A stretch of 64,000 nt of DNA from the NCBI GenBank assembly GCA_040390725.1, contig JAZJXT010000001.1:6896-70895 (forward strand), in the 5' to 3' direction. The position numbers and the translations under genes were made by a program. The notes under the pieces were generated by a model. The model ran no database searches, was not told where the DNA came from, and saw only the letters and a program-made list of their open reading frames with translations. This stretch comes from Patescibacteria group bacterium. Its GTDB lineage: Bacteria > Patescibacteriota > Minisyncoccia > Phycocordibacterales > UBA9973. This document shows positions 17,385 through 38,755 of this stretch, one piece after another (position 1 is the first letter of the stretch; each line of letters begins with the position of its first letter).

Positions 17385-17408
17385 CTATTTTTCTATTTTT
17401 CTATTTTT
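17385..17408. repeat. Simple sequence repeat (ctattttt)x3
   Basis: Read directly from the sequence. Confidence 0.5.
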
Positions 17409-17445
17409 TATTTCTTTTTTAGGTTTTTTATGCTACGATAGCCAG

Positions 17446-19362: not shown

Positions 19363-19375
19363 TTTGTTTTATTGT

Positions 19376-19449: not shown

Positions 19450-19450
19450 T

Positions 19451-19530
19451 ATTTACTTATCGCCTAACCAAAACAGTTAAAAACGGATTACTTACTTATC
19501 GCCTAACCAAAACAGCTAAGGGTGGATTAC
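19451..19530. repeat. Tandem 39-bp repeat x2 (ttacttatcgcctaaccaaaacag + 15-nt variable part). The second unit ends with ctaagggtggattac, a diverged copy of the tRNA 5'-end flank.
   Basis: Read directly from the sequence, immediately upstream of the tRNA. Confidence 0.6.
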
Positions 19531-19640
19531 TAATTTTTTAACTATATAGAATATAATAGTTTATGCGACATTTTGCAAGCTATTCAATTTAAGAAATTCC
19601 TCTTTTCCCTTTGAAACTTTCTCGGTGAGTGATACAATAT

Positions 19641-22600
19641 ATGTATATGAAGCTGGGAGTGAGTAGCACCAAGTTTAAATTTTTTGCAATTTTTGCTGTT
19701 GCTTTTTTTTGTTTCTTTTTTTCTGCGCATAGCGCGAGCGCTACGGCGAAGTTTGCCGTAGCTTCTGGAAACTGGAGCGCTACTTCTGGCGTTTGGGCGC
19801 TTACATCTTGCGCGACTGGCGCCGGAAATAATGTGCCGACTAGTAGTGATGCAGTGACTATTTGTAATGGAGTTACAGTTACAGTGGACGGTGCTGACGT
19901 TGCTTCTAGTATTACGGTTAATGCACCTACCACCGCAAATGGAATTACAATTAGCGGAACGAATACTCTCACTGTTACAAATGCGATTACCATGAATGCT
20001 CCGACGGCGGGAGTAAATGATACAATCGCTGTCGGCGCTGGGACTCTTTCTTCCGTAGGTATTACTATTAATGGAGGAGGTTCTTCAGGGTTTAATTCAA
20101 TTTTAAGTTTAAGTACGGGAACTATTACAACTACGGGTGGAATATCTTTTGGTGGTACAGTTGCTCAAGCACAATTGACGACGACCGACGTGGCGACGAT
20201 AAATCTGACTGGTACGATTTCTTCCGGCGGGACTCTCAGTATAAATTCCGGTACGCTTTTGAAAGCCACAGGTAGCAGTACTATAAACATTAGTAGCTCT
20301 TCTACTAATTGGGGCAAGGTTCAAGTTAATACGGGTACTCTCGGGTTGGGTGCTGCATTTACTGTGGCGACAGGTTTGCAAATTGATTCCGGCGCAACCT
20401 TGTCAGCAGGAGCAAATCTTGTAACTGATAAATGTGCGAGTACGGGATTGTCAGGGTTTACTATTAACGGAACATTATCCGGATCTGGCGGAGTAACTTT
20501 AGATACGGCGAGTTGTACTTTGGATGGTACCGGGTCAGTGACGAATACTGGCACATTTACTATGACAAATGATAAAACTATAGCTGGGACTGCGAGTTTG
20601 ACTGTGGGGGGCAGTGCTAGCGCTTCTACAATTTCTGCAGGTACAACAATAACAAATAATGGAACTTTTATTTTTGCAGGCACAGGGGCAGTGACGGGTG
20701 GTAATGCCACGACTACTATTTGGATTAACGCAGCGAATTCAACTTTGAAAATAGCAGGTACTGCTTTTTTGGCAACAGGAGTTTTAACAGCGACAGCGAG
20801 TGGTAATACTGTGGACTATAATAATAGTGCAGGGGTAGCAACAACACAAACACTTTTTAATACCACTTATTATAATTTTAATTTCGGAGGTACTAGCACG
20901 AAAGCTCTTCCTGCCGGCGGTATACAAGTTACTAATACTCTTTCTGTCAGTTCCGGTATTACGGCTACACTTAGTACTGGTGATTTTTTGACTACTAATT
21001 TAACTGTGACGGGCAGTGGAATATTTACTGGTACTGGTAGGACTATAACAATGAACGGAAATGGCGTTGGTACAGCAGGTAGATGGTTACATACTACAGG
21101 GGCAGGACAAATACGAACTAATTTAACTTTTAACTCGGCGGGAAATATTACTTTAGGAGATGGCACTACGGGATCAGCGGGTACAGTATTATGGGGGAAT
21201 TTTGGTTCTACTTTAACATGGACTGCTGGTACCATGATAACTACAAACTCTACATTAAATTTACATATGGATAATGCCCCTACAATATCTACAAATGGAA
21301 TGAAGTGGAACAATGTAACCTTGCTTAATACTGGTGGTGGAACACTTACATTGGGAAGTGACTTAGATATCGGGGGTAATTTAACTTGGCCTACTACTTC
21401 TACTGCGACTACTTTTGTCGGGGCAAATCGTATTATTACGTTACAAGGTAATTTAGTGATGGGAACTTCTTCTGCTGCAACTAACGCAGTGGCATCCGGA
21501 GCTTCTACTCAGACTATAAAAATGAATGCTAGTTCCGGTGCTCAAACTTGGTCAGGTCAACAAGCAATATCTGCAATCAGATTAACAGTAATACAGACAG
21601 GTTCGGCTTCATTCGCAATTAGCGGTACAGTGACACTTGCCACTACTGGATTTACTATTACTAGTGTTGGTTCTGGAGGATTTTCAGCAGCCGGAAGTAC
21701 CTTAAATTCATATAACAATGTTATTTTTAATACGAGTGGTTCAACATACCCCCTCTATAATGTGACTACTTGGGATGGTGGCAATACTATTCCTTTGAGT
21801 AGTAACTTATATATGACGGGAAATCTCGTTATGAATGGTAATACAAATGGTAGTAATGCTACTACTACATGGACTGGTCCATATTCAGTTACTGTTGGTG
21901 GTAACTTAACGCAAAGTTCAACTTCACTTAATATTACTGGTTCCACTAGCGGTGGTAATGTATTTCTTGGAATTATTATGAATGGCACTGGTACTTGGTC
22001 TAATGCTGCAGGTGCAACGAGCGTGATGACGGTGCCTTTGACATTTAATACTTCTGGTACGATTACTATCGGTAGTAGTGTGTATTATAGTACGGGAACT
22101 TTGTTGTATACTTTAGGCACAATTGATACATCTGCAAATAGTTCGACACTTAACATCGCAGGCTCGGCAACTTTAAATACTCCTACGGCAAGTATGAGTT
22201 GGTATAATTTAAACCAATCTACTACGGGAACTTTAACCTTGACGAGTGCAATAACCATTTCAAATACTCTTTCTGTCGCAAGTGGAGTGACTGAAACTAT
22301 TGCAACCAGTAATATAACAACAGTCAATTTAACCGTAACTAATACTGGTGTATTTTCTGGTAATGGAAGAACGATAACAGTAAGTGGAAGGTGGAGTCAC
22401 ACACAAGCCGGCTCAGGGAAAATAAGGTGCAATATAACTTTAACAAGCACTGCAACAATATCAGGAACAGTGTATTTTACAGGTGATAGTTTTCCAGTAA
22501 CATTAACAGGCGCAAGTGGAGTCACTACAACTGGAAGTATATTGGATATTGATGCTAGTGTCACATTAAATACTTCTACGATGTCATTCCAAGATATAAC

Positions 22601-25600
22601 CCATGTTGGTTCTATCGGAACGTTAACTCTTACAAGTGACTTAAACATAAATGGAAATTGGACAATGTTAGCAGGGGCAGCTGGTCTCGCAGGTGCAAAT
22701 ACAAATATATATTTAAAAGGTAATCTTAATATGGCTGCATCTGGTAGTGTTCAAGGACTTAGTACTCAAATATTATATATGAATGCAAGTTCTGGTACAC
22801 AGACTTGGTCTGGCGCACAAACTTGGAAATTTACAAAATTTATTGTCATTCAAACTGGGACAGCAGCATTTACAATGTCAGGCAGTCTCGCTCTTGATGG
22901 TGGCACATTCACTTTTACCTCTGTTGGAAGTGGAGGATTTACTAACACATCTACTGTCACAATGCTTGCCTCTTCAGGAAATATTTCATTAAGTTCCGCT
23001 AGTTCTTCTTATTCATTTAATAATGTGACAATGACTCTTTCAGCAAATAACATAACACTTCTAACAGATATTTATATTCTTGGAAATTTGGCTATAAATG
23101 GAACTGCCTCAACTCCAACAATAGGAGCATTCACCCTTTATGTAGCTGGTAATCTTTCTCAAGGTGGAACATCAACTAATGTTACCGGTACCGTAGGAAT
23201 TGTAATGAATGGATCGGGAACTTGGAGTAATACCGTAGGTGCAACGAGTGTGATGCAGGTGCCTTTGACATTTAATACCTCGGGGACGATAACACTTTCC
23301 GGAAACCTATACTATAGTACCGGAACTTTGACATACACAGCAGGCACATTATCTCCTGGCAGTTCTACTTTGAATATTCCGGCGAATACTACTTTTGCCG
23401 GAGGAATGAGTGGTAGTAATGCATTTAATAATATTGCAGTGTCAGCAGGAACTTTGACGAATAATGCGACGGCTGGTACGACAGGTTTAGCCATCACAGG
23501 AAATCTTACCGGCGCCGGGGCATTAACTCAAGGAACTAATTCTATTTTAACTTTAGGTGGAACTTCGACAATTACAACTTTGACGGCAAACACAACAGGG
23601 AATACTGTAATTTATAATGGTACGGCGGGGCAGACGGTAAAAGTACCCGCGAGTTCTACTTATATGAATTTAACTATTAACGATAGTGGACAAACAGCGA
23701 CTCTTGGCGGAGCTATTACTGTGAGTGGGAATTTAGCAATCAATACTGGAACACTGGATGATAATGGAACACAGATTACAGGTAATGCTACAAATAATTT
23801 AACGATGGCATCAGGTACGACTTTGAAAATTGGTATTGCCGGTACGGCGACGACTTTTCCTACGCTTTACACGACAGGACATACGACATTAAATTCTGCT
23901 TCGACCGTCATATATAATGCAGGAGTAACTCAAACTATTTCGTCGACGCCTGCTTATGGCAATTTGCAACTCTCTCGCGCATCCGGTACCCCGACGAAAT
24001 CTTTGAATGGTACAACGACAATAAATGGATCTTTGACTATTGACGCGAGCAATACGCTCTCTGCCGGAGCAAATCAAATAGCGCTCGGCGGAAATTATTC
24101 TAACAGTGGAACATTCACTGCAGGTACTGGAACATTTTTATTATCTGGGTCAGTGGCGCAAACTTTGTCGGGGACGATGACTAGCGGTTCGGCATTTTAC
24201 GATCTAACAATTACGAATTCTTCCGGTGCTTCAGCTAGTGATTGTGGACTCACAGGATTCACTGCTGGAATTATTTTCGGAGGATCAGCGACATCAACAC
24301 ATAACTATGTTATTACTACTGCTAATGTGCGAGTGACTTATAATGCCGGGTCAACTTATACTTTTGCAAATATAAATTGGAGCGGACAAGCCAGCGGAAC
24401 AAAAATTTATTTTAGGTCTTCGAGTGCAGGGTCCGCTTGGAATTTAAATGTTTCCGGCACACAGACTGCGGTGTCATATATAGATGTGTCTGATTCGGAT
24501 GCTCACACAGGAAGCTCTATAAATAGTGATACTACTGTGACCGATTGTAATAATAATACAAATTGGGTTTTTATTATGACGATTTCTGGTACGGCAAATG
24601 GTAATGATGGGGGCACAGTAAAGGTTGCTTTTAATAATTCTATTGATGCACACACTACTACTATTTCGGGTGGAGCTTGGACTATCAGTAATATTACGAA
24701 GCCAGCTGCGGGAGTTATTGTGACTGTTTTTGTTGATGGTGCTACTCTTGATTCAAATGAAACTACCGCTATTACAAAATACAGTTCAGGTGTTATTTCC
24801 GGTATGGTTTTGAATACAAATGTTTTAACAATTGGAAGTAATCAAAATACAAGTTTGACTACGACTAACCTCGGTCAATATACTTCTAGTAATGACGAAG
24901 ACGTAATGCAATCAGTTTCCAGCGGAGCATTATCAGTGCAGGGAACAAGTAATACATATGTAAATCCAATTCTTGCTGTTCTTAATAATAATACTCTTAC
25001 TGTAGATAGCGCTTCTACTGAAAGCATAACGACTGGTCAGTTGTATATATATGGTAGCGCTACTTTGACTGCTACCGGTACGCCGACTATTACTTTGAAT
25101 GGAACTTCCGGAACATTATTTACAAACTCAGGTACATTTACTCCAGCAACTTCTACTGTTACGCTTTCTGGCAATGGAGATGCTACTATAAATTCCGGAG
25201 CGATAACATTTTACAATTTAACTTCAAGCGGGACGGGAGTGAAAAGTGTAGATGCTTCTTCTGCATTAACATTTGCAACTTCTGGAACACTGACAGTTTC
25301 TGGGGGGACTTTTGATCCGGTGACAGCTCTCGTCGCAAGTGGTTCAAATACTTTAACTGCTTCGGCTGTACTTCGTGTTGAAGCATCTACTTTTGCCGGA
25401 TCGTATCCTGCAGGTTTCGGCACTTTGAATTTAAATTCCGGTTCTACTGTTGATTATCATTCCAGTGGAGCGCAAACAATTTCCAGCACAATTTCACCAT
25501 ATTATAATTTAACAACTTCGACAGGTGGGACAAAAACTTTAGGAGGTAATGTGACTATTTCAAATGTTTTAACAATCGGTGCTAGCTCAACACTTTCTGC

Positions 25601-28600
25601 AAGTTCTAATAATATTACATTATCAGGAACTACGGGAACACCTTTTATAGATTCTGGAACATTTTCTTCCGGCACGGGGACAGTTTCTTATACTGGAAAT
25701 AATGGTTCGGGAAATACTACGGTCTTGCCGGAAACTTATCACGATTTAACTTTAAATAATGCGAGTGAGACTTATGTATTAGGCGGAGCTACGACCATAA
25801 ATAATTTATTAACTATTACCGACGGAACACTCGATACTGATAGCACGAATCATTACAACTTTTCTACGAGTGATATTTTGATTGACACATCCGGCACGCT
25901 TTTGGGACGTGCTTCAAATATTACAGTCACAGAAAACTGGGTAAATACTGGGACATTTACCCGAGGCACTTCTACGGTGTTATTGAACGGAGACATTACG
26001 GATAACATAGCTGGAGATACTAATTTTAATAATTTAACTATTTCTAGCACTGTCGCAAAAACTGTTTACTTTACGACTACTGGCACTACTAGTGTTTATG
26101 GCATTTTTACTGTGACAGGGCATAATAGCCAGTTAATAAGTTTACTTCCAGAGCTTGCTCACCCAACAACTCAATTTCCTTTTCGGGTAATATCGCCTGG
26201 TACAGCTAGTATTAGTTATATAAATGTTTCTTATGGAGGATGCGCGGCTACCGCTATAAATATGTCACCCGTTAATTCTGTTGATGGTGGAAATAATGAC
26301 ACTTGTTGGTCTTTTGGAATTGCGATTTCCGGAACAGCAAATGGCAATGATGGAGAGACTGTAAAAATTGCAATCAATGGCACGGCGGATAGTCACACTA
26401 CTACGATATCGAGCGGAGCGTGGTCCTTTACAACTATTACTCAACCATCTTCCGGTGATATTGTTACTGTTTGGGTTGAAGGTGCTTCTGCTCCAAATAA
26501 AACAACTGCTATCACAAAATATTCTTCTGGCTCAGTTTCTGGAATGGTTTTGGATACAAATACACTGACTGTCGGGGATGCAGGTGGAGTGAGTTTGGCT
26601 GTTTCTGATTTTTCACATTATACTTCTGCTGATGACAGTTATGTGATGCATTCATATTCGAGCGGAGATTTGTCAGTGGCAGGGACTAATCCGACTTTGA
26701 AAATTTTATCTGGAAATACTTTAACTGCTTCTACTGGAGAAAGTGTAACAACAGGGAAAATTGATAATGCTGGCACTATTACTGTTACAGCTTCCAACAC
26801 TCCGAGTTTTACTTTGAACGGAACTTCGGGAACTTTGTTTACTAACTCTGGCACATTTACACCGGCGAGTTCTACGGTCACACTTTCCGGTAATGGCGAT
26901 GCGACTGTGAATTCCGGCGCTATTACTTTTTACAATTTAACAAATTCTGGCACGGGAGTGAAATCTTTGGGTGATGCGAATATTACTGTGAACCACAACA
27001 TGACAGTTTCTGGCGGTACTTTTGATCCGACTGCTTCTCGTACTATTACAGGGTCCGGCACAAATACTCTGGCTGTTTCTAGTGGAGCTACTATTCGCGC
27101 GGAGCATTCTTTATTTTCCGGTGATTGGATTTCTTTTGAAATTACGACTTTGAGTTCCGGCTCGACGGTGGATTATTATTTAAATAATGCTCAAACTATA
27201 GACAACACTCTTTCATATTCTAATTTAAATTTATCAAATAGTGGTACGAAAACTTTGGGAGGGGACACAACCATTGCAAATGTTTTGACTGTCGGCAGTA
27301 GTGCGACTCTTGATGGTAGCTCACATACTTTGACTCTTTCTGGGGCAACCGGTACGCCGTTTGTAGATTCTGGTACATTTACTTCCAGCACGGGAACTGT
27401 TTCTTATACGGGGAATTATGCGAGCGGTAATACGACGGTCTTGCCGGAAACTTACCACAATTTAACTTTAAATAATGCAAGCGAGACTTATGTTTTGAAT
27501 GGAACGACGCCAATAAATAATTTATTGACTATCACCGCAGGTACACTCGACACTGTCAGTCATAATTTTTCTACAAGTGATATCACCATTGGCGCTTCCG
27601 GCATGCTTAATGCAAATGCTTCCATTGCAACTGTCACAGAAAATTGGACAAACAATGGCACATTTAATTCTGGTACTTCTACCGTGTTGATGAATGGTGA
27701 TAATGCTCACGATCTAGTCGCTGGGACTACGAGTTTTTATAATCTTACTATCACCACTACCACTCCAAGCGTTGCCAAGGAAGTGGATTTTCCATCTACC
27801 ACTACCACAGTGATGAATGCTTTTAATGTTACAGGACATGGAGGCGCATTGATTAGTTTGTACTCTACGCCTTCTCCGACCAAGTGGAATTTTTATCCGA
27901 TGTTGGGTACTAACAATAGCGTGCGTTATGCAAAAATAAAAGATGGAGGCTGCGCTAATAATGCTATTGCTATTCGCCCGGCTAATTCCGTGGACGATGG
28001 CAACAATGATTCCTGTTGGGTTTTTTCTCCTTATGTTTACAAGCTCACAAATGCCAACACAGTAGAAGTTTACAATGATACAAATACTTCCAATCCTTCT
28101 CCGGTAAAAACTATTCAATTTTCAGATGACTATGCTTTGCCTACAAATAGTTTAGTAAAGCTAACAAGCTTGGCAGTCGATACTCACTTCAACAGACTTT
28201 ATGTGACGACAGATGATCCATCAGCTGGTCTGAAAGTTGTCGATATTAGTAATCCTTCTCCTTCCAGTTGGGTATGTTGTGCTAGTACTGTAGTTCTCTC
28301 TGATAATAGTGTGAATTTCCCCGGGCGTGATGTATATGTAGACAGTGCTGGTGTGCCTACAGTGTTGGGAGCTACGAGTTCCAAGGGCGGAATTTTTGTA
28401 ATAAATCCAAGCACTCTCGGTATTGCTTATTCAAATGTTCATAATGTTTCCGATCCTTCAGATGTCGCTCTCATTGTTCATGAACATGCCGGAATATATG
28501 ACAACACTGCTACCGGATTTATTTATGAATCAAATTATCACACATCACAACTTTATATTTATCCTTATAGCAATGTGACTCCGAGCGTAATCAGAGAAAC

Positions 28601-28994
28601 TACAAATGATATTTCGTCTTACGGTAAACCCACTGCTATTTCAGTGCATAGTATCAGTAATGGAAATACTTATTTTATGTTAGCCAATAATTCCCAAGTC
28701 GTGCATTTCTTCCCGGTTGATTATTCCACATCAAGTATTGCGGATTTAGTTTCTGCGCATGATTCTTCTTCGGTCGGTACAAATGTGATAAATGATTTGG
28801 CTTCGGCTTTGAATGATTATTTATATATCGCAGGAGGAACCGGGATTTATAAAATAGGTATTCCGTCTTCATCGCCTGCTTCTTCGTTTTATGTATTAGC
28901 GGATGGTTTTTCAAGTGTTGCGCAGGCTTCCGCCTCCGGACTCATCTTTGGCGTATCAAATGGAAATAGTACATTGTATCCTTTTACTCCATAA
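19641..28994 (+). CDS. Giant secreted repetitive surface protein (about 3,118 aa), a putative adhesin with a C-terminal LVIVD-like beta-propeller region
   Basis: Signal peptide MKLGVSS...FSAHSASA, Thr/Gly/Ser/Asn-rich beta-helix-like repeats, large internal duplications, and C-terminal LKVVDISNPSP-type motifs. The ORF-track start at 19629 is a GTG; ATG 19641 or 19647 is more likely. Confidence 0.85.
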   Translation: MYMKLGVSSTKFKFFAIFAVAFFCFFFSAHSASATAKFAVASGNWSATSGVWALTSCATGAGNNVPTSSDAVTICNGVTVTVDGADVASSITVNAPTTANGITISGTNTLTVTNAITMNAPTAGVNDTIAVGAGTLSSVGITINGGGSSGFNSILSLSTGTITTTGGISFGGTVAQAQLTTTDVATINLTGTISSGGTLSINSGTLLKATGSSTINISSSSTNWGKVQVNTGTLGLGAAFTVATGLQIDSGATLSAGANLVTDKCASTGLSGFTINGTLSGSGGVTLDTASCTLDGTGSVTNTGTFTMTNDKTIAGTASLTVGGSASASTISAGTTITNNGTFIFAGTGAVTGGNATTTIWINAANSTLKIAGTAFLATGVLTATASGNTVDYNNSAGVATTQTLFNTTYYNFNFGGTSTKALPAGGIQVTNTLSVSSGITATLSTGDFLTTNLTVTGSGIFTGTGRTITMNGNGVGTAGRWLHTTGAGQIRTNLTFNSAGNITLGDGTTGSAGTVLWGNFGSTLTWTAGTMITTNSTLNLHMDNAPTISTNGMKWNNVTLLNTGGGTLTLGSDLDIGGNLTWPTTSTATTFVGANRIITLQGNLVMGTSSAATNAVASGASTQTIKMNASSGAQTWSGQQAISAIRLTVIQTGSASFAISGTVTLATTGFTITSVGSGGFSAAGSTLNSYNNVIFNTSGSTYPLYNVTTWDGGNTIPLSSNLYMTGNLVMNGNTNGSNATTTWTGPYSVTVGGNLTQSSTSLNITGSTSGGNVFLGIIMNGTGTWSNAAGATSVMTVPLTFNTSGTITIGSSVYYSTGTLLYTLGTIDTSANSSTLNIAGSATLNTPTASMSWYNLNQSTTGTLTLTSAITISNTLSVASGVTETIATSNITTVNLTVTNTGVFSGNGRTITVSGRWSHTQAGSGKIRCNITLTSTATISGTVYFTGDSFPVTLTGASGVTTTGSILDIDASVTLNTSTMSFQDITHVGSIGTLTLTSDLNINGNWTMLAGAAGLAGANTNIYLKGNLNMAASGSVQGLSTQILYMNASSGTQTWSGAQTWKFTKFIVIQTGTAAFTMSGSLALDGGTFTFTSVGSGGFTNTSTVTMLASSGNISLSSASSSYSFNNVTMTLSANNITLLTDIYILGNLAINGTASTPTIGAFTLYVAGNLSQGGTSTNVTGTVGIVMNGSGTWSNTVGATSVMQVPLTFNTSGTITLSGNLYYSTGTLTYTAGTLSPGSSTLNIPANTTFAGGMSGSNAFNNIAVSAGTLTNNATAGTTGLAITGNLTGAGALTQGTNSILTLGGTSTITTLTANTTGNTVIYNGTAGQTVKVPASSTYMNLTINDSGQTATLGGAITVSGNLAINTGTLDDNGTQITGNATNNLTMASGTTLKIGIAGTATTFPTLYTTGHTTLNSASTVIYNAGVTQTISSTPAYGNLQLSRASGTPTKSLNGTTTINGSLTIDASNTLSAGANQIALGGNYSNSGTFTAGTGTFLLSGSVAQTLSGTMTSGSAFYDLTITNSSGASASDCGLTGFTAGIIFGGSATSTHNYVITTANVRVTYNAGSTYTFANINWSGQASGTKIYFRSSSAGSAWNLNVSGTQTAVSYIDVSDSDAHTGSSINSDTTVTDCNNNTNWVFIMTISGTANGNDGGTVKVAFNNSIDAHTTTISGGAWTISNITKPAAGVIVTVFVDGATLDSNETTAITKYSSGVISGMVLNTNVLTIGSNQNTSLTTTNLGQYTSSNDEDVMQSVSSGALSVQGTSNTYVNPILAVLNNNTLTVDSASTESITTGQLYIYGSATLTATGTPTITLNGTSGTLFTNSGTFTPATSTVTLSGNGDATINSGAITFYNLTSSGTGVKSVDASSALTFATSGTLTVSGGTFDPVTALVASGSNTLTASAVLRVEASTFAGSYPAGFGTLNLNSGSTVDYHSSGAQTISSTISPYYNLTTSTGGTKTLGGNVTISNVLTIGASSTLSASSNNITLSGTTGTPFIDSGTFSSGTGTVSYTGNNGSGNTTVLPETYHDLTLNNASETYVLGGATTINNLLTITDGTLDTDSTNHYNFSTSDILIDTSGTLLGRASNITVTENWVNTGTFTRGTSTVLLNGDITDNIAGDTNFNNLTISSTVAKTVYFTTTGTTSVYGIFTVTGHNSQLISLLPELAHPTTQFPFRVISPGTASISYINVSYGGCAATAINMSPVNSVDGGNNDTCWSFGIAISGTANGNDGETVKIAINGTADSHTTTISSGAWSFTTITQPSSGDIVTVWVEGASAPNKTTAITKYSSGSVSGMVLDTNTLTVGDAGGVSLAVSDFSHYTSADDSYVMHSYSSGDLSVAGTNPTLKILSGNTLTASTGESVTTGKIDNAGTITVTASNTPSFTLNGTSGTLFTNSGTFTPASSTVTLSGNGDATVNSGAITFYNLTNSGTGVKSLGDANITVNHNMTVSGGTFDPTASRTITGSGTNTLAVSSGATIRAEHSLFSGDWISFEITTLSSGSTVDYYLNNAQTIDNTLSYSNLNLSNSGTKTLGGDTTIANVLTVGSSATLDGSSHTLTLSGATGTPFVDSGTFTSSTGTVSYTGNYASGNTTVLPETYHNLTLNNASETYVLNGTTPINNLLTITAGTLDTVSHNFSTSDITIGASGMLNANASIATVTENWTNNGTFNSGTSTVLMNGDNAHDLVAGTTSFYNLTITTTTPSVAKEVDFPSTTTTVMNAFNVTGHGGALISLYSTPSPTKWNFYPMLGTNNSVRYAKIKDGGCANNAIAIRPANSVDDGNNDSCWVFSPYVYKLTNANTVEVYNDTNTSNPSPVKTIQFSDDYALPTNSLVKLTSLAVDTHFNRLYVTTDDPSAGLKVVDISNPSPSSWVCCASTVVLSDNSVNFPGRDVYVDSAGVPTVLGATSSKGGIFVINPSTLGIAYSNVHNVSDPSDVALIVHEHAGIYDNTATGFIYESNYHTSQLYIYPYSNVTPSVIRETTNDISSYGKPTAISVHSISNGNTYFMLANNSQVVHFFPVDYSTSSIADLVSAHDSSSVGTNVINDLASALNDYLYIAGGTGIYKIGIPSSSPASSFYVLADGFSSVAQASASGLIFGVSNGNSTLYPFTP
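20890..23450 (+). repeat. Intragenic tandem duplication, 2 x roughly 1.28 kb (protein-level repeats of about 430 aa)
   Basis: Paired blocks, for example TNTLSVSSGITATLSTGDFLTTNLTVTGSGIFTGTGRTIT versus SNTLSVASGVTETIATSNITTVNLTVTNTGVFSGNGRTIT, and TWSNAAGATSVMTVPLTFNTSGTIT versus TWSNTVGATSVMQVPLTFNTSGTIT. Boundaries are approximate. Confidence 0.5.
24570..28030 (+). repeat. Intragenic tandem duplication, 2 x roughly 1.73 kb (roughly 80-85% nucleotide identity by eye)
   Basis: ISGTANGNDGGTVKVAFNNSIDAHTTTISGGAW... matches AISGTANGNDGETVKIAINGTADSHTTTISSGAW... Both units end in NSVDGGNNDTCW and NSVDDGNNDSCW. Confidence 0.6.
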
Positions 28995-29003
28995 TGATAA
29001 ATT

Positions 29004-29558
29004 ATGAAAATAAAAATGTTAAATAAAATTATAAATAAAAAATCAGGTTTTACTCTCATCGAGCTTGTTTTATATGTGAGCTTGGTGTCAGTGTTGGTGC
29101 TGGGTGTAGCTTCTTTTTGGAATGTGATAAGGAGTATTGGATTAAAAAATAAATCAGTGTCTGCTGTCGAAGAGCAGGGGGCATTTGTTTCTGATATTAT
29201 GAATGAGCGTATTCGCCAAGCGACGCACGTATGCACTCCGACGAGCGCTGGTGACACTGCACACACTCTCGACCTCGATACCAATTGTACTGTGCACACC
29301 GGCAGTGAAGTGAGTCTTGCGTTAGACATTCATGGGATTTTAATTCTGACAGAGGGAGGGCAGGATTATTCATTGACTGATGAGAGGGTCAGCATGCCTT
29401 CGAGTTCTATTAATTTTACCAAAGCGCAAGACACAGTGCATGGAGGAGCAGAGAGCGTGAATTATACTTTTGTAATGCAGTCGAAAGATTATTCTTCCAG
29501 TTCTCCTTTTAGTTATGAGAAAACATTTTCCGGCGGGGGAGTATTGAGAGTTTATTAA
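29004..29558 (+). CDS. type IV pilin-like protein (prepilin N-terminus G|FTLIELV)
   Basis: Class III signal peptide KSGFTLIELVLYVSLVSVLVLG with Glu at +5. Confidence 0.7.
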   Translation: MKIKMLNKIINKKSGFTLIELVLYVSLVSVLVLGVASFWNVIRSIGLKNKSVSAVEEQGAFVSDIMNERIRQATHVCTPTSAGDTAHTLDLDTNCTVHTGSEVSLALDIHGILILTEGGQDYSLTDERVSMPSSSINFTKAQDTVHGGAESVNYTFVMQSKDYSSSSPFSYEKTFSGGGVLRVY

Positions 29559-29974: not shown

Positions 29975-31111
29975 ATGAAAAAACAAAATTCGGGTTCGAT
30001 AATAATTTTTGGAATAGTTTTTCTTTTAATCCTTACCGGTTTTTATTTTGGTTACAAAAAAGGACTTTTCTCTCCGACAAAAGAGCCCGCTATCAAAACT
30101 TTGATTCCTGCTCCGGTTGTTATTCCGGCATCAGACATAACTCCAGCACCAAAACCAACCGTAGTAGCTCCGAAAAAAACTTCTACCACTACAACAGTTA
30201 AAAAAACAACCGCCCCTGTCGTAAAAGTCACAACTCCTCCTGCGCCCACAGCACCACTTCCGCCTCCTTTACCAAAGATTGTTTCTGCTACTGCCACGAA
30301 TCCGGGGACTTCTACGATTATAATAACTTGGAAAACAAACGTGCCTACCGTAGGGCAAATTCTTTACGGCGAACAAAGCTCTTTGACTGGGACATATCCG
30401 TTATCGACTAATCAGGAAAATGTTTTATCTACGGATCACACGTATACATTTTCTGACCTTATCCCGGAAAAAAAATATTATTATAAAATTTATGTGACGG
30501 ATGCATCAGGGAATAAAACCAATTCTTCAGAAAATTCTTTTGTACCGGCATTGGCCACTATATCCGGGGTAAAAACTGACAATATTTCTGCTACCGGAGC
30601 GACTATTTCTTGGACAACAAATTTTAAGACAAAAGGGCAGGTAGTTTATAGTACAGAAAGTTCGTCTACCGGAGTTTATTCTTTTAGTACTCCTTTGACC
30701 AACACTTTTGAAACATCTCATAGTGTTGACCTTTCCAATCTTACTTATAATACAAAATATTACTATCGAGTTATTTTTGTTGATGCGGCTGGCATTAAAG
30801 TTTCTTCTCAGGAATATTCTTTTTCTTCTTCTATTATTTATAACGTTTCTTATAGCAAGAGCTACTCAGGGATTTCTGGAGTTATTATTTCTTGGAGTAC
30901 CAGTGTTCCGACTAAGACAGAAATAAGATATGGCACCCAAAGATCAACTGCCGGCATTTATCCTTTTAGCGCTACCGACAGTAGTCTTTTGATGTATCAC
31001 AATATGACACTTTATAATTTGGATATAAATGCAACTTATTATTATAGGATTATTACCACTGACGCCAATAATAAAAAAACCACTTCTGTGGAGTATAGTT
31101 TCAATGCATAG
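29975..31111 (+). CDS. membrane-anchored protein with four tandem Fn3-like beta-sandwich repeats
   Basis: N-terminal transmembrane segment, a Pro/Thr linker, and four repeats of the form TxISWTTNxxTxGxVxYG...YYYRV. Confidence 0.65.
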   Translation: MKKQNSGSIIIFGIVFLLILTGFYFGYKKGLFSPTKEPAIKTLIPAPVVIPASDITPAPKPTVVAPKKTSTTTTVKKTTAPVVKVTTPPAPTAPLPPPLPKIVSATATNPGTSTIIITWKTNVPTVGQILYGEQSSLTGTYPLSTNQENVLSTDHTYTFSDLIPEKKYYYKIYVTDASGNKTNSSENSFVPALATISGVKTDNISATGATISWTTNFKTKGQVVYSTESSSTGVYSFSTPLTNTFETSHSVDLSNLTYNTKYYYRVIFVDAAGIKVSSQEYSFSSSIIYNVSYSKSYSGISGVIISWSTSVPTKTEIRYGTQRSTAGIYPFSATDSSLLMYHNMTLYNLDINATYYYRIITTDANNKKTTSVEYSFNA

Positions 31112-31200: not shown

Positions 31201-31710
31201 ATGCGAAATTTTGGGAATAAGAACAAAAAATTATCAAAGGGTTTTACATTACTTGAACTCCTCTTGGTTATAGCCGGTATTGGTATCTTGGCGACTATCG
31301 TTTTCGTGGTTTTGGACCCGGCAACAACTATTACTAAAACTAACAATGCAAAAAGGTTGAGTGATGTTCAGGGTATTTTATCCGCGATGGAATTGTATTC
31401 TTTTGATCATGATGGCAACAGAGCTGGAACAAGCTGGGATACTGTTACTTATGACTATGAGCCTATTTGTTATGGTACGACAAACGACATGCCTATTACT
31501 TGCACATCCGGTTCTATAGATTTAACCGCTCATCTTTTGACTGATGCAAAATATTTGTCAGCAGTTCCGTTTGATCCTTCATTAATATCAACTCCGCCTT
31601 CAGTTGGAGGTGATAGCGGATATGAAGCCAAAGTACTTGCTACCGGAGTCGTGACTATTCGCTCTGAGACCAATACTGCAGCATCAGTGACTGCTAAATT
31701 TAATCCGTAA
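31201..31710 (+). CDS. type IV pilin (candidate major pilin, PilA-like)
   Basis: KGFTLLELLLVIAGIGILATIV prepilin motif with Glu at +5; 169 aa. Confidence 0.8.
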   Translation: MRNFGNKNKKLSKGFTLLELLLVIAGIGILATIVFVVLDPATTITKTNNAKRLSDVQGILSAMELYSFDHDGNRAGTSWDTVTYDYEPICYGTTNDMPITCTSGSIDLTAHLLTDAKYLSAVPFDPSLISTPPSVGGDSGYEAKVLATGVVTIRSETNTAASVTAKFNP

Positions 31711-33147
31711 ATGGAGCCGAATAAAAAATTAAAAAAAATAAATCCTATTTTAACTGCAACTGTTGTTTTGGTTTTATCTCTTTTTGTGACTGTGGCGATG
31801 TTTTTGTATGAAAAGAATATTTTTGAATCAGCCAATTCTGCAGATGTTACCAAGGTTTTAGTTTCAAGTTTCCCTGAGTATATTGCGCTATTTGGTTTTG
31901 CCGGGTCTCTTGCTTTGTTTGGAATAATTTTATCATTACTTACAGCACGCAGTCGCGCGGTGGACTTGGCAGACATCATGACGGCTTCTTTGAAAAAACG
32001 CACGGAAGAACTCGAATACGCGAAAGATAAAATTGAAAATGAAAAAAGAAAATTGAGCACGATTCTTTCTTCGATGGGGGAATGCTTAATAGCTGTGTCT
32101 GACGCAGGTGAAATAGTTTTGATGAATCAAATGGCTCAGGCTACCCTGGGCAGGGCAGAGGCAGATTCTACCGGAGAAAAAATCGAAGATGTTTTGACTC
32201 TTGTGAAAGATGGAAAATTAATACCGCAAAGGAGTCATCCCGTTTATAAAGCTATCAAGGGCAAAGATATTGCGCGTGTTTCTTTGAATGACAATGTTTC
32301 TATTAAAGATAAATCCGGGCGAGTTTTTCCCGTTGTTCTTTCTGCTGTTTCTACTTTGGGTAAAGTTGATGATGGGGAAGTTTCAGTTATTATAGTTTTC
32401 CGTGATGTATCTACGGAGAAAGCCGTGGACGAAGCAAAAACAGAATTCGTTTCTCTCGCTGCGCATCAGTTACGTATGCCACTTACTTCTATTCGATGGT
32501 ATTCCGAAATGCTTATTTCCGGTGATGCGGGAGTTCTTAATCCTGATCAAAAATCATATCTTGATGAAATTTATCAGAATAATAAACGCATGGTGAACCT
32601 AGTCAATCAGCTTCTTTCTGTTTCTCGTATTCGCCTCGGTACTTTTAAAATAGAACCTGTGCCGACCGATATGAATGAAATAGTGGAAAGTGTTTTAGGA
32701 GAATTAAAACCTGATATCACTAAAAAAAATATGCAGGTGGTAAAAAATTATACAAAAGATTTGGAAAAAATGAATGCTGATCCGGGGCTCTTGCGAGTGG
32801 TTTTGCAAAACCTTATTTCAAATGCGATAAAGTATACTCCGGAAAAGGGAACTATAACCATAGCTATCGAAGAAGGCAAAGAATTTTCAATAAAAGTTTC
32901 TGATACGGGCTACGGTATTCCGGAAGCTGACTCAGGAAAAATATTTTCCCAACTTTTCCGCGCGGAAAATATAAAAGGCAAAGATGTCGAAGGCACAGGC
33001 TTAGGACTTTATATGGTAAAAACAATCGTCGAACAAGTCGGCGGAGCCATTAGTTTCCATTCCGAAGAAAACAAAGGCACCACTTTCCGTGTAACTTTCC
33101 CAAAAATTGGAATGAAAGCCAAAAAAGGGGCTACGACGCTAGGATAG
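31711..33147 (+). CDS. sensor histidine kinase (2 TM, PAS, HisKA, HATPase_c)
   Basis: H-box LAAHQLRMPLTSI and N/G1/G2 boxes. Its start codon abuts the stop codon of the pilin gene. Confidence 0.85.
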   Translation: MEPNKKLKKINPILTATVVLVLSLFVTVAMFLYEKNIFESANSADVTKVLVSSFPEYIALFGFAGSLALFGIILSLLTARSRAVDLADIMTASLKKRTEELEYAKDKIENEKRKLSTILSSMGECLIAVSDAGEIVLMNQMAQATLGRAEADSTGEKIEDVLTLVKDGKLIPQRSHPVYKAIKGKDIARVSLNDNVSIKDKSGRVFPVVLSAVSTLGKVDDGEVSVIIVFRDVSTEKAVDEAKTEFVSLAAHQLRMPLTSIRWYSEMLISGDAGVLNPDQKSYLDEIYQNNKRMVNLVNQLLSVSRIRLGTFKIEPVPTDMNEIVESVLGELKPDITKKNMQVVKNYTKDLEKMNADPGLLRVVLQNLISNAIKYTPEKGTITIAIEEGKEFSIKVSDTGYGIPEADSGKIFSQLFRAENIKGKDVEGTGLGLYMVKTIVEQVGGAISFHSEENKGTTFRVTFPKIGMKAKKGATTLG

Positions 33148-34514: not shown

Positions 34515-35102
34515 TTGTCTTTTCTAGTTCGTATTTGTTATAATAAACTGATGGAATTTAGTAAGAGAAATATAATACTTTGGGTTGTGGTAGTCATAGT
34601 TTTGATTGTCAGTGTTTATTCTTTTTTGCATTTTAACAATTCAAATGAAATTGGAATACCGGCAAGTAAAAAAGTGAACCCTGTAGCTAAGCCTGTTCTG
34701 ACGGGAGCATTGCCGTTAGACACTAGCACTTTGTCTGCCGCTGATAAAAAAGCATATGATGAACTTGCAAAATGGGTGGATATAAAAATTACCAATCAGC
34801 CTACTGTTTCTAAAAATCCTCAAACTGTAAAACTTCCAGCGGATTGGACTGCTCGAGAAGATTATTTGCTGACCGTGGTTCCGTCAAAAATGCCCGCGAA
34901 TATTCGCAATTTTCGTTCGGTTATTATGCGTCCTTCCAGATTTAAAATTTTATCTCGCGAAGATGCCATATACAGCGTCCCTGATGCCACGGATCCATAT
35001 TTCAAAGACCACTGCCATGCCGGCACAGTTATTGTTTGTTATGGAGGGAAGAATCCCGAGGTCAAGCATGTTTTTGATTTGATGTTTTATTTTAATAAGT
35101 AA
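34515..35102 (+). CDS. hypothetical membrane-anchored protein (195 aa)
   Basis: ORF with an N-terminal transmembrane helix. Confidence 0.45.
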   Translation: MSFLVRICYNKLMEFSKRNIILWVVVVIVLIVSVYSFLHFNNSNEIGIPASKKVNPVAKPVLTGALPLDTSTLSAADKKAYDELAKWVDIKITNQPTVSKNPQTVKLPADWTAREDYLLTVVPSKMPANIRNFRSVIMRPSRFKILSREDAIYSVPDATDPYFKDHCHAGTVIVCYGGKNPEVKHVFDLMFYFNK

Positions 35103-35136: not shown

Positions 35137-35511
35137 ATGGAAGAAAAAAAGAAAAAAATTTTAGTATGTGATGATGAACAAGCTATTAATCATGCTCTCC
35201 GATTAAAATTAGGCCATGAAGGCTTTGATGTTTCTTCGGCGCTTGACGGTGATGAATGCGTCGCAGCGTTAAATAAAGATAATTATGATCTTCTTTTGTT
35301 GGATTTAATTTTACCAAAGAAAGATGGTTTTGAAGTTTTAGCAGAAATGAAAAATATGGCATACAAAGTTCCCGTGGTTATCGTTTCGAATTTGGGACAA
35401 GAAGAAGATATTGCGCGAGTCAAACATCTCGGTGTGAGTGATTATTTAATAAAATCCAATACTTCTATTTCCGATATGGTTGCAAAAGTAAAAGAAGTTT
35501 TAAGTAAATAA
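35137..35511 (+). CDS. single-domain response regulator (CheY-like receiver)
   Basis: DD...LLLLDLILPKKDG...K receiver motifs. Confidence 0.8.
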   Translation: MEEKKKKILVCDDEQAINHALRLKLGHEGFDVSSALDGDECVAALNKDNYDLLLLDLILPKKDGFEVLAEMKNMAYKVPVVIVSNLGQEEDIARVKHLGVSDYLIKSNTSISDMVAKVKEVLSK

Positions 35512-35541: not shown

Positions 35542-37188
35542 ATGACAAATGAAGAAATAAAAAAAATACTCATAGATGGAAATTACGCAACTCCGGAAGA
35601 TATAACAAAAGTCGAAGATGAGATGAATCGCGCTGATTCTTTGTCTGATGCATTGATAAGGGAAGGCATAGTCACTAGCACTATCTTGGGGCAAGCCATC
35701 GCCGAGTTTTATGGAGTTCCTTTTGCAGATTTGAATTCACATCCTCCATTTCGTGAAAGTGTTTTGAAAATACCTGAAGATACGGCTCGAAAATATCGGC
35801 TTATTGCAGTGAGTGAAGACCAAGACGGGGTGACGATAGCCACTGACAATCCAAAACAAGAAGATTTAATAAAAATTCTACCTACTCTCTTTAAAGATGT
35901 AAAAATTTATTTGGTTTATTCTACATCAGAACAAATCGATGAACAATTTTCTGCTTACCAAAAATCCCTCGAGACAAGATTTTCAAAAATCATAAAAGAA
36001 AACAGTCGTGTTGCTCCGGAAATTATCGACCAAATTATCGGTGATGCTCTCGGCCTTCATTCTTCCGATGTGCACTTTGAACCGATAGGGGAAGATGTGG
36101 TGATTCGTTTTCGTATAGACGGGGTGATGCATGAAGCTGGAAAATTCAAAAAACTTTTTTATGAAAATATTTTAAACCGTGTGAAAGTTCAGGCAAAGCT
36201 GCGTATTGACGAGCATTATGCCGCGCAAGACGGATCTATTCGTTATCAAAAAGACGGACATTTTATTGACTTGCGTGTATCTATCGTGCCGACAGTCGAT
36301 GGAGAAAAAATAGTTATTAGAATTTTGGGTGAATATGTGCGTGGTTTTACTTTGGGAGATTTAGGTCTTTCAAAAGAAGATGAAACAATTATCCGTGAAG
36401 CTGCAGACAAGCCATTCGGCATGATACTTGTCGCAGGTCCGACAGGTTCCGGAAAAACTACGACACTTTATGCACTCATTCGTTTATTAAATAGTCCAAA
36501 AGTGAATATTACTACTATTGAGGATCCTGTGGAATATCATTTGGCAGGTATAAATCAAATTCAGGTGAATCCCGCTACTGATCTTACTTTTGCAAAAGGT
36601 TTGCGTTCGATTGTGCGTCAGGATCCGGATGTAGTATTGGTAGGTGAAATACGCGACAGGGAAACAGCTGAGATAGCCGTGAATGCGGCATTGACCGGGC
36701 ACCTTTTGCTCTCTACTTTTCACGCCAATGATTCCGCGACGGTTATCCCTAGACTTTTAAATATGGGCATCGAGCCATTTCTGCTTTCTTCTACATTCGA
36801 ACTTATTATTTCTCAGCGCTTGGTGCGAAAGATTTGCATGCAATGCAGATACGGCGTGGAGTATACCGACACCAAGCTTGTTGAAAAATTTAAACAAGCA
36901 AAAACATTTTTCTCGGAAAAGAAAATAACTTTATATGAAGGCAAGGGTTGTGATGCTTGCAATCATACGGGCTTTACCGGACGCAGTGCTATTTTTGAAT
37001 TTATTAAAATTTCTCCGGGTATAGAGGATTTGATTATAAAGAATCCTTCCTCGGGGCAGATCTGGGAATTGGCGCGCAAGGAAGGCGCTATATCAATGTT
37101 TGAAGACGGTATTAGAAAAGTAAAAAATGGCATCACTACTATAGATGAACTCTTGCGTGTCGCCGAGCCTCCGCGAGATATTATTTAA
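35542..37188 (+). CDS. pilB: type IV pilus assembly ATPase PilB (GspE family)
   Basis: N-terminal GSPII_E_N-like domain, Walker A GPTGSGKTTTLYA, and a C-terminal CxxC zinc site. Confidence 0.92.
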   Translation: MTNEEIKKILIDGNYATPEDITKVEDEMNRADSLSDALIREGIVTSTILGQAIAEFYGVPFADLNSHPPFRESVLKIPEDTARKYRLIAVSEDQDGVTIATDNPKQEDLIKILPTLFKDVKIYLVYSTSEQIDEQFSAYQKSLETRFSKIIKENSRVAPEIIDQIIGDALGLHSSDVHFEPIGEDVVIRFRIDGVMHEAGKFKKLFYENILNRVKVQAKLRIDEHYAAQDGSIRYQKDGHFIDLRVSIVPTVDGEKIVIRILGEYVRGFTLGDLGLSKEDETIIREAADKPFGMILVAGPTGSGKTTTLYALIRLLNSPKVNITTIEDPVEYHLAGINQIQVNPATDLTFAKGLRSIVRQDPDVVLVGEIRDRETAEIAVNAALTGHLLLSTFHANDSATVIPRLLNMGIEPFLLSSTFELIISQRLVRKICMQCRYGVEYTDTKLVEKFKQAKTFFSEKKITLYEGKGCDACNHTGFTGRSAIFEFIKISPGIEDLIIKNPSSGQIWELARKEGAISMFEDGIRKVKNGITTIDELLRVAEPPRDII

Positions 37189-37194
37189 TAAATT

Positions 37195-38292
37195 ATGGAA
37201 CCTAAAAAGAAAAAAATATCAAAAAGTTCTTTTGGAATATATTTGGGACTGGCCAAAGAAAAAGAATATTTAATGGAAAATTTGAGTTTTCTTATTTCTT
37301 CCGGAATGCCGATAGGGGAAGCGCTTCGCTCTATTCAGGTCGAACTCAAAAGCAATTTTATGAAAAAAATTGTCGAGCAAGCAGTGGAAGACGTCGAAAA
37401 TGGCGTACCACTTTATCGGGCGCTCGACGATACCGGGCTTTTCGGAATGCATGAAATTTCCTTGATAAAAAATGGAGAAGAGTCCGGACTCCTGGTGGGG
37501 AATTTAAAAGTAATCTCTGAGCAGGCTGCCAAGAATCGTATTTTCAGATCTCGTTTGTCTTCGGCTTTGATGTATCCGACGCTTATATTGTCTGTCACCT
37601 TTTTGGTGGGTACAGGGGTGGCTTGGTTTATTTTACCCAGATTAGCGACGATGTTTTCTCAGCTTCATATAAAGCTCCCGCTTATCACTCAGATTTTTAT
37701 TTCTGTCGGTATTTTTTTGAGTAAATACGGTTCTATATTTTTCCCTTTTTTAATTGCTTTTGTTGTTTTGGCCATTTACTTGCTTTTTTATTTTCCAAAG
37801 ACACGTATAGCCGGGCAGTATCTTTTATTTTCGATTCCGGGCATCAGCAGATTGATTCAAGAATTGGAAATTTCCAGAATGGGATATCTTTTAGGATCAC
37901 TTAATAATGCCGGATTGCCTTTACTGCAAGCTATCGGCTCGCTTCGCGAATCTACACTTTCTCCTTTTTATGCGAAGTTTTATGATTTCTTATATATAAA
38001 AATAGAAGAAGGTTTTTCTTTTGAGGAAAGTTTTAAAGCATACAAAAATATTCGCAAGATATTGCCTTTATCCATTCAGCAAATAATAACTATCGGAGAA
38101 CAATCAGGCAATCTTTCGACTGCTCTTTTGAAAATAGGCCAAGCTTATGAAGAAAAAACAGAAGTCACCAGTAAAAATATTTCTATTGCCCTCGAGCCTA
38201 TTTTGCTTGTGATAGTTTGGGGGGGAGTGATGTTGGTGGCTATCGCTGTTATTTTGCCTATTTATAGTTTGGTTGGCGGAATAGGAAAGTAA
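37195..38292 (+). CDS. pilC: type IV pilus platform protein PilC (GspF family)
   Basis: Two GspF-like repeats with transmembrane helices. Confidence 0.88.
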   Translation: MEPKKKKISKSSFGIYLGLAKEKEYLMENLSFLISSGMPIGEALRSIQVELKSNFMKKIVEQAVEDVENGVPLYRALDDTGLFGMHEISLIKNGEESGLLVGNLKVISEQAAKNRIFRSRLSSALMYPTLILSVTFLVGTGVAWFILPRLATMFSQLHIKLPLITQIFISVGIFLSKYGSIFFPFLIAFVVLAIYLLFYFPKTRIAGQYLLFSIPGISRLIQELEISRMGYLLGSLNNAGLPLLQAIGSLRESTLSPFYAKFYDFLYIKIEEGFSFEESFKAYKNIRKILPLSIQQIITIGEQSGNLSTALLKIGQAYEEKTEVTSKNISIALEPILLVIVWGGVMLVAIAVILPIYSLVGGIGK

Positions 38293-38293: not shown

Positions 38294-38755
38294 ATGAAAT
38301 TAAAAAATAATAAATTTTTTAATAGGGGCTTCACTTTATTTGAGCTTTTGCTCGTGGTGGCGGCATTCGCTACTATCGCGCTCATCGTCGGTCCTTTTTC
38401 CAGCTCGTCGGTAATACGCAGTAATTTAGATGTAGCATCTCGCAATGTGGAATCTTCTTTGCATCGGGCGTATACTTATGCCAGATCAGGAGAAAATAAT
38501 TCTGATTGGGGAGTGCATATTACCAGCACTGATGTGATTGTATTTTCCGGCTCAACTTATTCTGGACGAGATGCTGACCTTGATGAAGATGCAAAGATTG
38601 CTTCTTCGGTTACCTTGGGTGGATTAAGCGATGTTATCTTTATGCAAAAAACCGGCACTCCGACCAATGACAGTATCGGCGAGATTACTTTGGAGTCAGA
38701 TCAAGTTACAAAACATATTAATATAAATGGAGCGGGTGCGGTGACTGTAAATTAA
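38294..38755 (+). CDS. type IV pilin-like protein
   Basis: NRGFTLFELLLVVAAFATIALIV prepilin motif. Confidence 0.75.
   Translation: MKLKNNKFFNRGFTLFELLLVVAAFATIALIVGPFSSSSVIRSNLDVASRNVESSLHRAYTYARSGENNSDWGVHITSTDVIVFSGSTYSGRDADLDEDAKIASSVTLGGLSDVIFMQKTGTPTNDSIGEITLESDQVTKHININGAGAVTVN

Follow-up and report, generated by a model that had tools for sequence, protein, structure and literature searches.

A giant secreted β-helical protein with a predicted C-terminal propeller, encoded ahead of pilin-like genes in a Patescibacteria type IV pilus locus

The window analyzed here is a stretch of 64,000 nucleotides from a Patescibacteria group bacterium (assembly GCA_040390725.1, contig JAZJXT010000001.1, positions 6,896 to 70,895), in which a single gene at 19641-28994, referred to below as the giant, stands at the head of a type IV pilus (T4P) locus. 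Giant β-helix surface proteins are a known theme, as is attachment by T4P in Patescibacteria. The novelty lies in a specific, conserved and testable link between them, in that a propeller-tagged subfamily of giants is wired into the minor-pilin end of the T4P locus. Functional coupling of the giant to the pilus is highly likely, and the protein probably serves as a pilus-linked means of seizing host cells. Our preferred model, which we put forward tentatively and by analogy with PilY1 rather than homology to it, is that of a non-pilin adhesin mounted on the pilus, or at minimum dependent on it, and docked through its propeller. The model builds on four established results: the open reading frame (ORF), the predicted folds, the protein family and the conserved gene linkage. 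Physical docking via the propeller and attachment to hosts are what the model would add to them.

All five propeller-bearing giants, including that of the window, lie directly upstream of an ortholog of a 184-aa prepilin-like protein (w184), which is itself followed by a 131-aa protein (w131). The window reads from ribosomal proteins L22 to L5 through ftsH, tRNA-Ile(UAU), the giant, the 184-aa pilin, the 131-aa protein and a 378-aa Fn3 protein to a 169-aa pilin, a PAS histidine kinase, a HicB-like insertion, a 195-aa protein, a response regulator, PilB and PilC, after which come a 153-aa pilin and a 623-aa modular pilin. This order, ftsH and the tRNA included, is matched around P0075 (locus L004) in a Candidatus Nomurabacteria metagenome-assembled genome (MAG) from Lac Pavin, whose FtsH and PilB are 87% and 81% identical to those of the window. 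The window's FtsH is also present in sequencing run SRR26324628. The genes downstream of P0080 (L040) are fully syntenic with the window, and P0079 (L008) is followed by w184-like and w131-like genes, a pilin, a histidine kinase, a response regulator, PilB and PilC. The locus of P0078 (L006/L007; two New Zealand groundwater MAGs) is rearranged and runs PilC, pilin, 641-aa propeller-pilin, giant, w184-like, w131-like; the giant-w184-w131 order thus survives rearrangement. The original prediction, made from the letters of the window, had the giant immediately upstream of the T4P locus, and that adjacency is kept in five lineages. The 10-nt gap that it reported to the first pilin-like gene measures 9 nt (28995-29003, from the giant stop to the 184-aa pilin ATG). 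The corresponding spacing is 2 nt in L006, with overlaps of 17 nt in L004 and 8 nt in L008, and no terminator-like hairpin or site occurs between the giant and w184 in the window. This spacing fits the co-transcription of giant and pilin that we infer.

No T4P genes are seen in the visible flanks of four propeller-less giants from the same family (P0003, P0007, P0081, P0082), giving five of five against none of four beside T4P genes (Fisher's exact test, p = 0.008). A 623-aa-type propeller-pilin is likewise present in each of the four assessable giant-bearing loci (window, L004, L006, L040) and absent from the three related giant-less loci (L042, L043, L044); the giant-less relatives carry only a 208-aa version of the modular pilin, without the propeller. 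Across loci PilB is 74-83% and PilC 63-77% identical; divergence and modularity are far greater in the giant and the pilins. The sequence places the window organism among the Patescibacteria as a Nomurabacteria-like member, and the database entry for the window's own pilin reads 'Patescibacteria group bacterium'.

The giant is one unbroken ORF of 3,117 codons plus stop, on the plus strand, with no internal stop codon. The originally reported length of 3,118 aa includes the stop codon, and the protein has 3,117 residues. Other possible starts are GTG 19629 (the longest) and ATG 19647, and either ATG, 19641 or 19647, agrees with the N-terminus of the closest relative, P0075, in which the signal peptide begins at the equivalent place. 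Threonine (18.4%), serine (12.9%), glycine (11.7%) and asparagine (9.0%) together make up 52% of residues, in line with the T/G/S/N-rich character noted originally. The signal peptide, also predicted at the outset, is the only hydrophobic segment and is assigned to the Sec type by its n-h-c pattern: a basic stretch MYMKLGVSSTKFK is followed by FFAIFAVAFFCFFF and then SAHSASA-TA, closely resembling the P0075 N-terminus (...KFFAILVFAFCCFIFSAHSAAAA). The giant has neither a class III prepilin signal nor a pilin domain. The original prediction also proposed a search for sortase, LPXTG or S-layer anchors, and none of these was found. A regular-expression search located no LPXTG with a hydrophobic segment, only internal LATTG and LAITG; no hydrophobic stretch or anchor is present at the C-terminus; and no Pfam match to SLH or PG_binding domains was obtained, though some relatives do have PG_binding_1 or a type IX secretion system tail. 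Sortase motifs were rejected, LATTG and LAITG being internal with no hydrophobic segment behind them. Promoter-like sites in the giant region do not exceed shuffled sequence overall, and the one directly upstream (19611-19638) is suggestive only. The GC content of the ORF (0.40-0.44, against ~0.35-0.37 across much of the window) was considered as a sign of transfer and is instead read as an effect of T/G/A/S codon usage.

Self-BLAST in chunks reveals two diverged tandem duplications, as had been predicted. A1 (aa ~316-745) and A2 (~746-1252) are 41% identical overall and 35-62% locally, and B1 (aa 1645-2226) and B2 (2227-2795) are 62% identical overall and 50-65% locally. The middle module M is weakly similar to parts of the B units, and a cap motif recurs at module ends, first as CNNNTNWVF, then as GGNNDTCWSF and finally as DGNNDSCWVF. 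The N-terminal start motif (GNWS...) is shared with P0058, P0035 and P0036; GNWS...W may resemble a G8 domain, for which the giant has no match, though some relatives do. Since this gene is long, repetitive and of low complexity, and comes from a MAG, it could be suspected of being an assembly artefact or a decaying pseudogene built from collapsed or chimeric repeats. We regard this as extremely improbable. The repeat copies are only 73-82% identical at the DNA level (73-74% for B1/B2), too divergent to collapse, so that the duplications are old and a collapse or mis-join is unlikely; the frame stays open for 9.35 kb; and the module order M-B-...-CT recurs together with the flanking genes in four independent assemblies.

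Structure prediction, a check proposed with the original prediction, gives a β-helix for the B unit and a propeller for the C-terminus. For the B unit, AlphaFold2 was supplied with an alignment (alignment A2) that joins B1 and B2 with eleven homologous units taken from other giants, and returned a high-confidence all-β model with pLDDT 87.6 and pTM 0.81. The first ~90 residues of this model would form a seven-strand β-sandwich, as judged by strand pattern, and the remainder is predicted to be a right-handed parallel β-helix with three faces, as in pectin-lyase-like folds. Both halves of the predicted "β-helix or Ig-like arrays" are therefore represented in the model, the small sandwich being the Ig-like element by its strand pattern. 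The closest solved folds are those of adhesins and tailspikes (VacA p55, Vag8, UpaB, TibA, Hap, pertactin, Ag43, SRRP and tapirins).

A β-helix of this kind could instead belong to an enzyme, a polysaccharide lyase or tailspike-type depolymerase that opens the host cell wall and for which adhesion is secondary; the Omnitrophota giant genes found beside type II secretion system (T2SS)/T4P-like loci have been linked to cell-wall degradation (bioRxiv 10.1101/2023.11.21.568195). This explanation is unlikely for the window giant. Its best structural matches are non-enzymatic adhesin passengers, its modules are repeated in tandem in the manner of a stalk element, and no lyase or hydrolase family is matched by sequence in Pfam, NCBIfam or the PDB; the clear homology to a characterized enzyme that would have counted against the original prediction was not found in these databases.

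The last 322 residues are predicted to adopt a β-propeller fold in a model of moderate confidence (pLDDT 62.6). A BLASTP match (E 2e-6) relates it to the propeller of the 623-aa modular pilin. The original prediction spoke of an LVIVD-type propeller. The propeller stands, while formal membership of LVIVD (PF08309) is not supported by sequence: the giant scores at best 17.0 bits (E 0.0037), short of the 20.2-bit cutoff, and does so through a single repeat (domain residues 66-78). For P0075 the score is 19.1 bits, and a match is obtained with two of the four domain copies. The label "LVIVD-type" is a reasonable lead, not an established assignment. Pfam PilY1/PilC is matched neither by the whole giant (E ≤ 1) nor by the isolated C-terminal domains (E ≤ 10), for which only LVIVD, SBBP and aRib are listed.

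Searches of Pfam, NCBIfam and PDB sequences with the giant found nothing above threshold (PDB at E ≤ 1), and a PDB profile search was empty. An exhaustive HMMER search with aa 1918-3117 yielded 1,486 representatives at E ≤ 1e-3 and 131 at E ≤ 1e-30, mostly giants of 2,000-7,400 aa; named sources include Patescibacteria, Nomurabacteria, an archaeon and Bacteroidota. The ~580-aa B unit recurs through the family as a cassette, of which 43 copies are near full length; P0182 (7,400 aa), for instance, has at least five in tandem. The propeller was counted among 216 family proteins with a profile based on an alignment of four C-terminal propellers (alignment A1). It matches four of them (P0075, P0078, P0079 and P0080), the window giant being the fifth example, and in these four it is always the last domain, at the extreme C-terminus behind a B-type cap. 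The P0080 propeller was overlooked by local phmmer and is recovered by the A1 profile with filters off (E 2e-109). Scanning one genome per species with this profile returned only two Nomurabacteria already in the set, and scanning the JGI metagenomes returned no propeller examples. The C-terminal domain had no match in a word-indexed database that yields only proteins of up to 1,027 aa, long proteins being seemingly out of its reach, and a metagenome scan with a profile of the 184-aa pilin gave generic N-terminal pilin-helix matches only, none near a giant or a propeller. Between lineages, the propeller-bearing giants (1,732-3,281 aa) vary in the number and type of their β-helix modules, as expected for a host-facing part. 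The A1 profile offers a search key that separates pilus-linked giants from the very large family of T/S/G-rich β-helix proteins. Full-text literature searches, which were not aimed at the propeller-defined subfamily, found no description of it, and this is weak evidence of absence.

Other members of the family combine the same modules differently. P0074, a 2,822-aa protein from an archaeal MAG, adds to the β-helix units seven repeats of the GloVer 'choice-of-anchor' kind as well as a PT-HINT/intein-type module; the β-helix modules are thus reused in polymorphic-toxin-like giants outside Patescibacteria. The name 'GloVer choice-of-anchor repeat' was rejected for the window giant, as it derives from a region of P0074 that the giant lacks, and no C-terminal toxin or PT-HINT module of the polymorphic toxin or contact-dependent inhibition type was detected in the giant by Pfam. 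Behind three propeller-less giants (L001 12771-18476, L039 6632-12261, L041 16302-20980) lies another, seemingly conserved cassette made up of four or five proteins, most of them ~300-450 aa long, with a cohesin-domain protein next in L039 and L041. This cassette may serve the same β-helix modules as a second means of anchoring or assembly.

According to our preferred model, the giant would be exported by Sec as a fibrous adhesin and would not itself be a pilin. Some 2,750 of its residues would form a chain of right-handed parallel β-helix modules with small β-sandwich domains interspersed, making a rigid rod with a length of the order of 50 nm (estimated from ~24 residues and 0.48 nm per rung). 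The propeller, the conserved hallmark of the subfamily, would act as a docking module by which this rod is tied to the pilus, at its tip or minor-pilin complex. Candidate partners are the pilin-like proteins w184 and w131 and/or the propeller paralogue in the 623-aa modular pilin. Extension and retraction of the pilus would then present, and afterwards reel in, the long and variable host-binding rod. The logic is that of PilY1/PilC because the giant combines a Sec signal without a pilin domain, the lack of a wall anchor, an adhesin-type rod with variable modules, a terminal propeller found only in the pilus-linked copies, a position ahead of the minor pilins and a paralogous propeller on the modular pilin.

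The likeness to PilY1/PilC of type IVa pili (Pseudomonas, Neisseria, Myxococcus) extends to several features. Both are large proteins with a Sec rather than a prepilin signal that are encoded inside a minor-pilin cluster, w184 and w131 being downstream of the giant in all five loci; both join a C-terminal β-propeller (in the giant, a predicted one), the conserved part, to a variable N-terminal adhesive part; and both are accessory, absent from some loci. On the other hand, no sequence homology is detectable, and PilY1 is not among the preferred structural matches. The giant is about three times longer, with a predicted β-helix chain in place of the vWA-type domain of PilY1. Its host is a Patescibacteria bacterium, regarded as monoderm-like, unlike the hosts of PilY1/PilC, and its location at the pilus tip is only proposed.

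Several observations weigh against this model. The sample is small, the five lineages are all Nomurabacteria-like, and contig ends truncate the view in two of the four controls. Furthermore, w184 is not specific to giants: an ortholog (54% identical by BLASTP, 52% by tblastn) occurs in L042, a closely related T4P locus with no giant (PilB 76%), and more distant orthologs occur in the giant-less Parcubacteria loci L043-L046. The propeller model has a pLDDT of only 62.6, falling below 50 for the final ~45 residues, a stretch that is nonetheless conserved (...SG..FGVS...S.LYPF), and derives from an alignment of 4 sequences. The contact between propeller and pilin is one that we purely infer, and the propeller could equally be a distal ligand-binding head, as proposed for PilX2 of TM7x. 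The presence of w184 in giant-less loci implies that the giant is an accessory, added in front of the minor-pilin pair. In L042 (3276-4224), the place that the giant holds in the window, directly upstream of the w184 ortholog, is taken by an AbiEii fragment and a gene-free gap of ~650 bp, and tblastn finds no giant remnant there.

The main rival explanation, possible though on the doubtful side, is that the giant is a free-standing surface fibril or adhesin, co-regulated with the pilus but not part of it. Here the rod would be held non-covalently on the envelope and the C-terminal propeller would be its distal ligand-binding head, an arrangement modeled on the tapirins of Caldicellulosiruptor (PDB 4wa0, 6n2b, 6n2c). 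The tapirins are also encoded next to a T4P locus, but they are much smaller, consist of a single β-helix domain with no propeller, and bind cellulose; they resemble the B unit in fold only, with no match to the giant in the PDB sequence search at E ≤ 1. The occurrence of the 184-aa pilin in giant-less loci favors this explanation, as does the proposal that the PilX2 propeller is a lectin-like binding head. Giant surface proteins have, moreover, been noted in candidate phyla radiation (CPR) predators and are common in CPR genomes (PMC8080830). Against it, retention at the cell would be unexplained, given the standard signal cleavage motif and the lack of LPXTG, SLH, PG_binding and a C-terminal transmembrane segment. 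The propeller is also the most position-constrained, subfamily-defining part of the protein and correlates perfectly with T4P adjacency, which is expected of a docking module and not of a fast-evolving binding head.

TM7x (Saccharibacteria), in which T4P drive host binding, provides a precedent: its propeller-bearing minor pilin PilX2 is needed for this binding to be efficient (PMC11623550). PilX2 is thus a T4P component of a Patescibacteria member whose propeller is implicated in host binding. It is described as a minor pilin without a predicted prepilin (PilD) signal peptide and has a C-terminal seven-bladed propeller with RCC1 repeats. Its pilin-plus-propeller layout is shared by the 623-aa modular pilin, of whose propeller the giant's C-terminal domain is a paralogue. 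The giant itself differs from PilX2 in having no pilin domain, a Sec signal and ~2,750 aa of predicted β-helix ahead of the propeller.

A further alternative is that the giant is cargo, exported or assembled by the pilus machinery working as a T2SS-like piston, and no stable pilus component. Its conserved linkage to PilB, PilC and pseudopilin-like genes is compatible with this, and the Omnitrophota giants are preceded by T2SS/T4P-like systems. We nevertheless consider it quite unlikely, as no secretin gene was found among the locus genes scanned. Patescibacteria are regarded as lacking an outer membrane, in which case a Sec-exported giant would need no second secretion step. The giant also differs from the autotransporter and two-partner-secretion (TPS) adhesins (VacA p55, pertactin, Ag43, UpaB, TibA, Hap, HxuA, EtpA): it would have no outer membrane to cross, and it has no β-barrel translocator, no TPS domain and no sequence homology that we could find. 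Its C-terminus is the predicted propeller, with no Pfam autotransporter match, so it does not qualify as a type V system. The Omnitrophota giants (bioRxiv 10.1101/2023.11.21.568195) resemble it in that very long genes are consistently found beside a secretion or pilus system with small class III signal-peptide genes. They belong to another phylum, are far larger, combine antiparallel β-helices with enzyme domains and have the system upstream of the giant gene; this comparison is by description only, not by homology.

In its most specific form, which we think rather unlikely to hold in full, the preferred model describes an undescribed Nomurabacteria-type pilus accessory, a ~50-nm β-helical non-pilin 'harpoon' clipped to the T4P tip by pairing of its C-terminal propeller with the paralogous propeller of the modular pilin. 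If true, the rod would be an exchangeable, module-shuffled host-recognition element convergent with PilY1. If the docking model is right, a 'non-pilin tip adhesin with a propeller' would have arisen independently of PilY1 in monoderm-like ultrasmall bacteria. Experiments so far have dealt with Saccharibacteria pilins. For the way in which the vast uncultured Parcubacteria/Nomurabacteria recognize and hold their hosts, the locus presents a bounded, testable candidate: a single conserved propeller of 322 aa, the two minor pilins next to it, and the propeller-pilin that is its paralogue.

Table 1. Features of the giant gene and the adjoining T4P locus (window coordinates)
Feature	Position	Strand	Remarks
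Promoter-like site: TTGAAA, 16-nt spacer, TG-extended TACAAT	19611..19638	+	Top score in scan, 10/12 matches plus TG
Giant ORF, secreted β-helical fibre protein (predicted)	19641..28994	+	ATG 19641, TAA 28992-28994
Sec-type signal peptide, aa 1 to ~34-36, ASA/ATA cleavage motif	19641..19748	+	Sole hydrophobic stretch of giant
N-terminal T/G/S-rich region, aa ~37-315, opening with GNWS...W...P..sD.V.I motif	19749..20585	+	Resembles N-terminal regions of 19 family members
Repeat A1, aa 316-745	20586..21875	+	hhalign to B-unit family, probability 91%
Repeat A2, aa 746-1252	21876..23396	+	A2-like modules recur in P0078
Middle β-helix module M, aa 1253-1644, ending with cap CNNNTNWVF	23397..24572	+	Matches in 95 family proteins
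Repeat B1, aa 1645-2226: ~90-aa β-sandwich, right-handed parallel β-helix (both predicted), cap ...GGNNDTCWSF	24573..26318	+	
Repeat B2, aa 2227-2795, architecture as B1	26319..28025	+	62% identical to B1
C-terminal β-propeller domain (predicted), aa 2796-3117 (last 322 aa)	28026..28991	+	
w184, 184-aa prepilin-like protein	29004..29558	+	N_methyl motif; orthologs 44-59% identical in L004, L006/7, L008, L040
w131, 131-aa protein, N-terminal hydrophobic helix	29564..29959	+	Orthologs behind w184 in all related loci; no Pfam match
378-aa membrane-anchored protein, three Fn3/Pur_ac_phosph_N-like domains	29975..31111	+	Conserved in L004, L040
169-aa prepilin	31201..31710	+	N_methyl motif GFTLLELLL
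PAS histidine kinase	31711..33147	+	Conserved in related loci
195-aa conserved locus protein	34515..35102	+	Orthologs in L004, L006, L008, L040
Response regulator receiver	35137..35511	+	
PilB-type assembly ATPase (MshEN + T2SSE)	35542..37188	+	
PilC platform protein (T2SSF)	37195..38292	+	
153-aa prepilin-like protein	38294..38755	+	N_methyl motif
623-aa modular pilin: prepilin N-terminus, propeller (LVIVD-like motif), BACON-like domain	38757..40628	+	Paralogue of giant's C-terminal domain

Within the T4P locus (Table 1), w131 is probably a minor pilin and may be PilX/GspK-like, and the 169-aa prepilin is a candidate for the major pilin. Between the histidine kinase and the 195-aa protein, window positions 33192-34478 hold a 77-aa HicB-like antitoxin and two ORFs of 64 and 234 aa. 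The syntenic loci L004, L008 and L040 yielded no counterpart of this insertion.

The tRNA-Ile(UAU) between ftsH and the giant is on the minus strand in the window, but L004 has it on the plus strand at the corresponding junction. The idea of a tRNA-flanked island carrying the giant was rejected on account of this shared FtsH/giant junction. Beside the tRNA (region 19374-19531) lies a 39-bp tandem repeat of 2.7 copies (19426-19531) that holds partial copies of the tRNA 5' end; together, the strand switch and the repeat may be the scar of a local inversion. Further upstream, at 14046-19362, a ribosomal cluster (L22, S3, L16, L14 and L5 by Pfam; L29, S17 and L24 by position only) leads directly into ftsH and not into S14/S8/L6.

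Two other features lie farther from the giant. At 49454-49539 on the minus strand, ARAGORN calls a tRNA-Ser with anticodon ACT (loop ...GGTTTACTAAACC...). Bacterial serine tRNAs of this kind usually have GCU, so that A34 would be out of the ordinary, and the call could be a miscall or a modified (inosine) decoder. Finally, proC-, proB- (with a PUA domain) and proA-like genes at 7160-10273 constitute a proline-synthesis cluster, which is noteworthy in a lineage regarded as biosynthetically poor.

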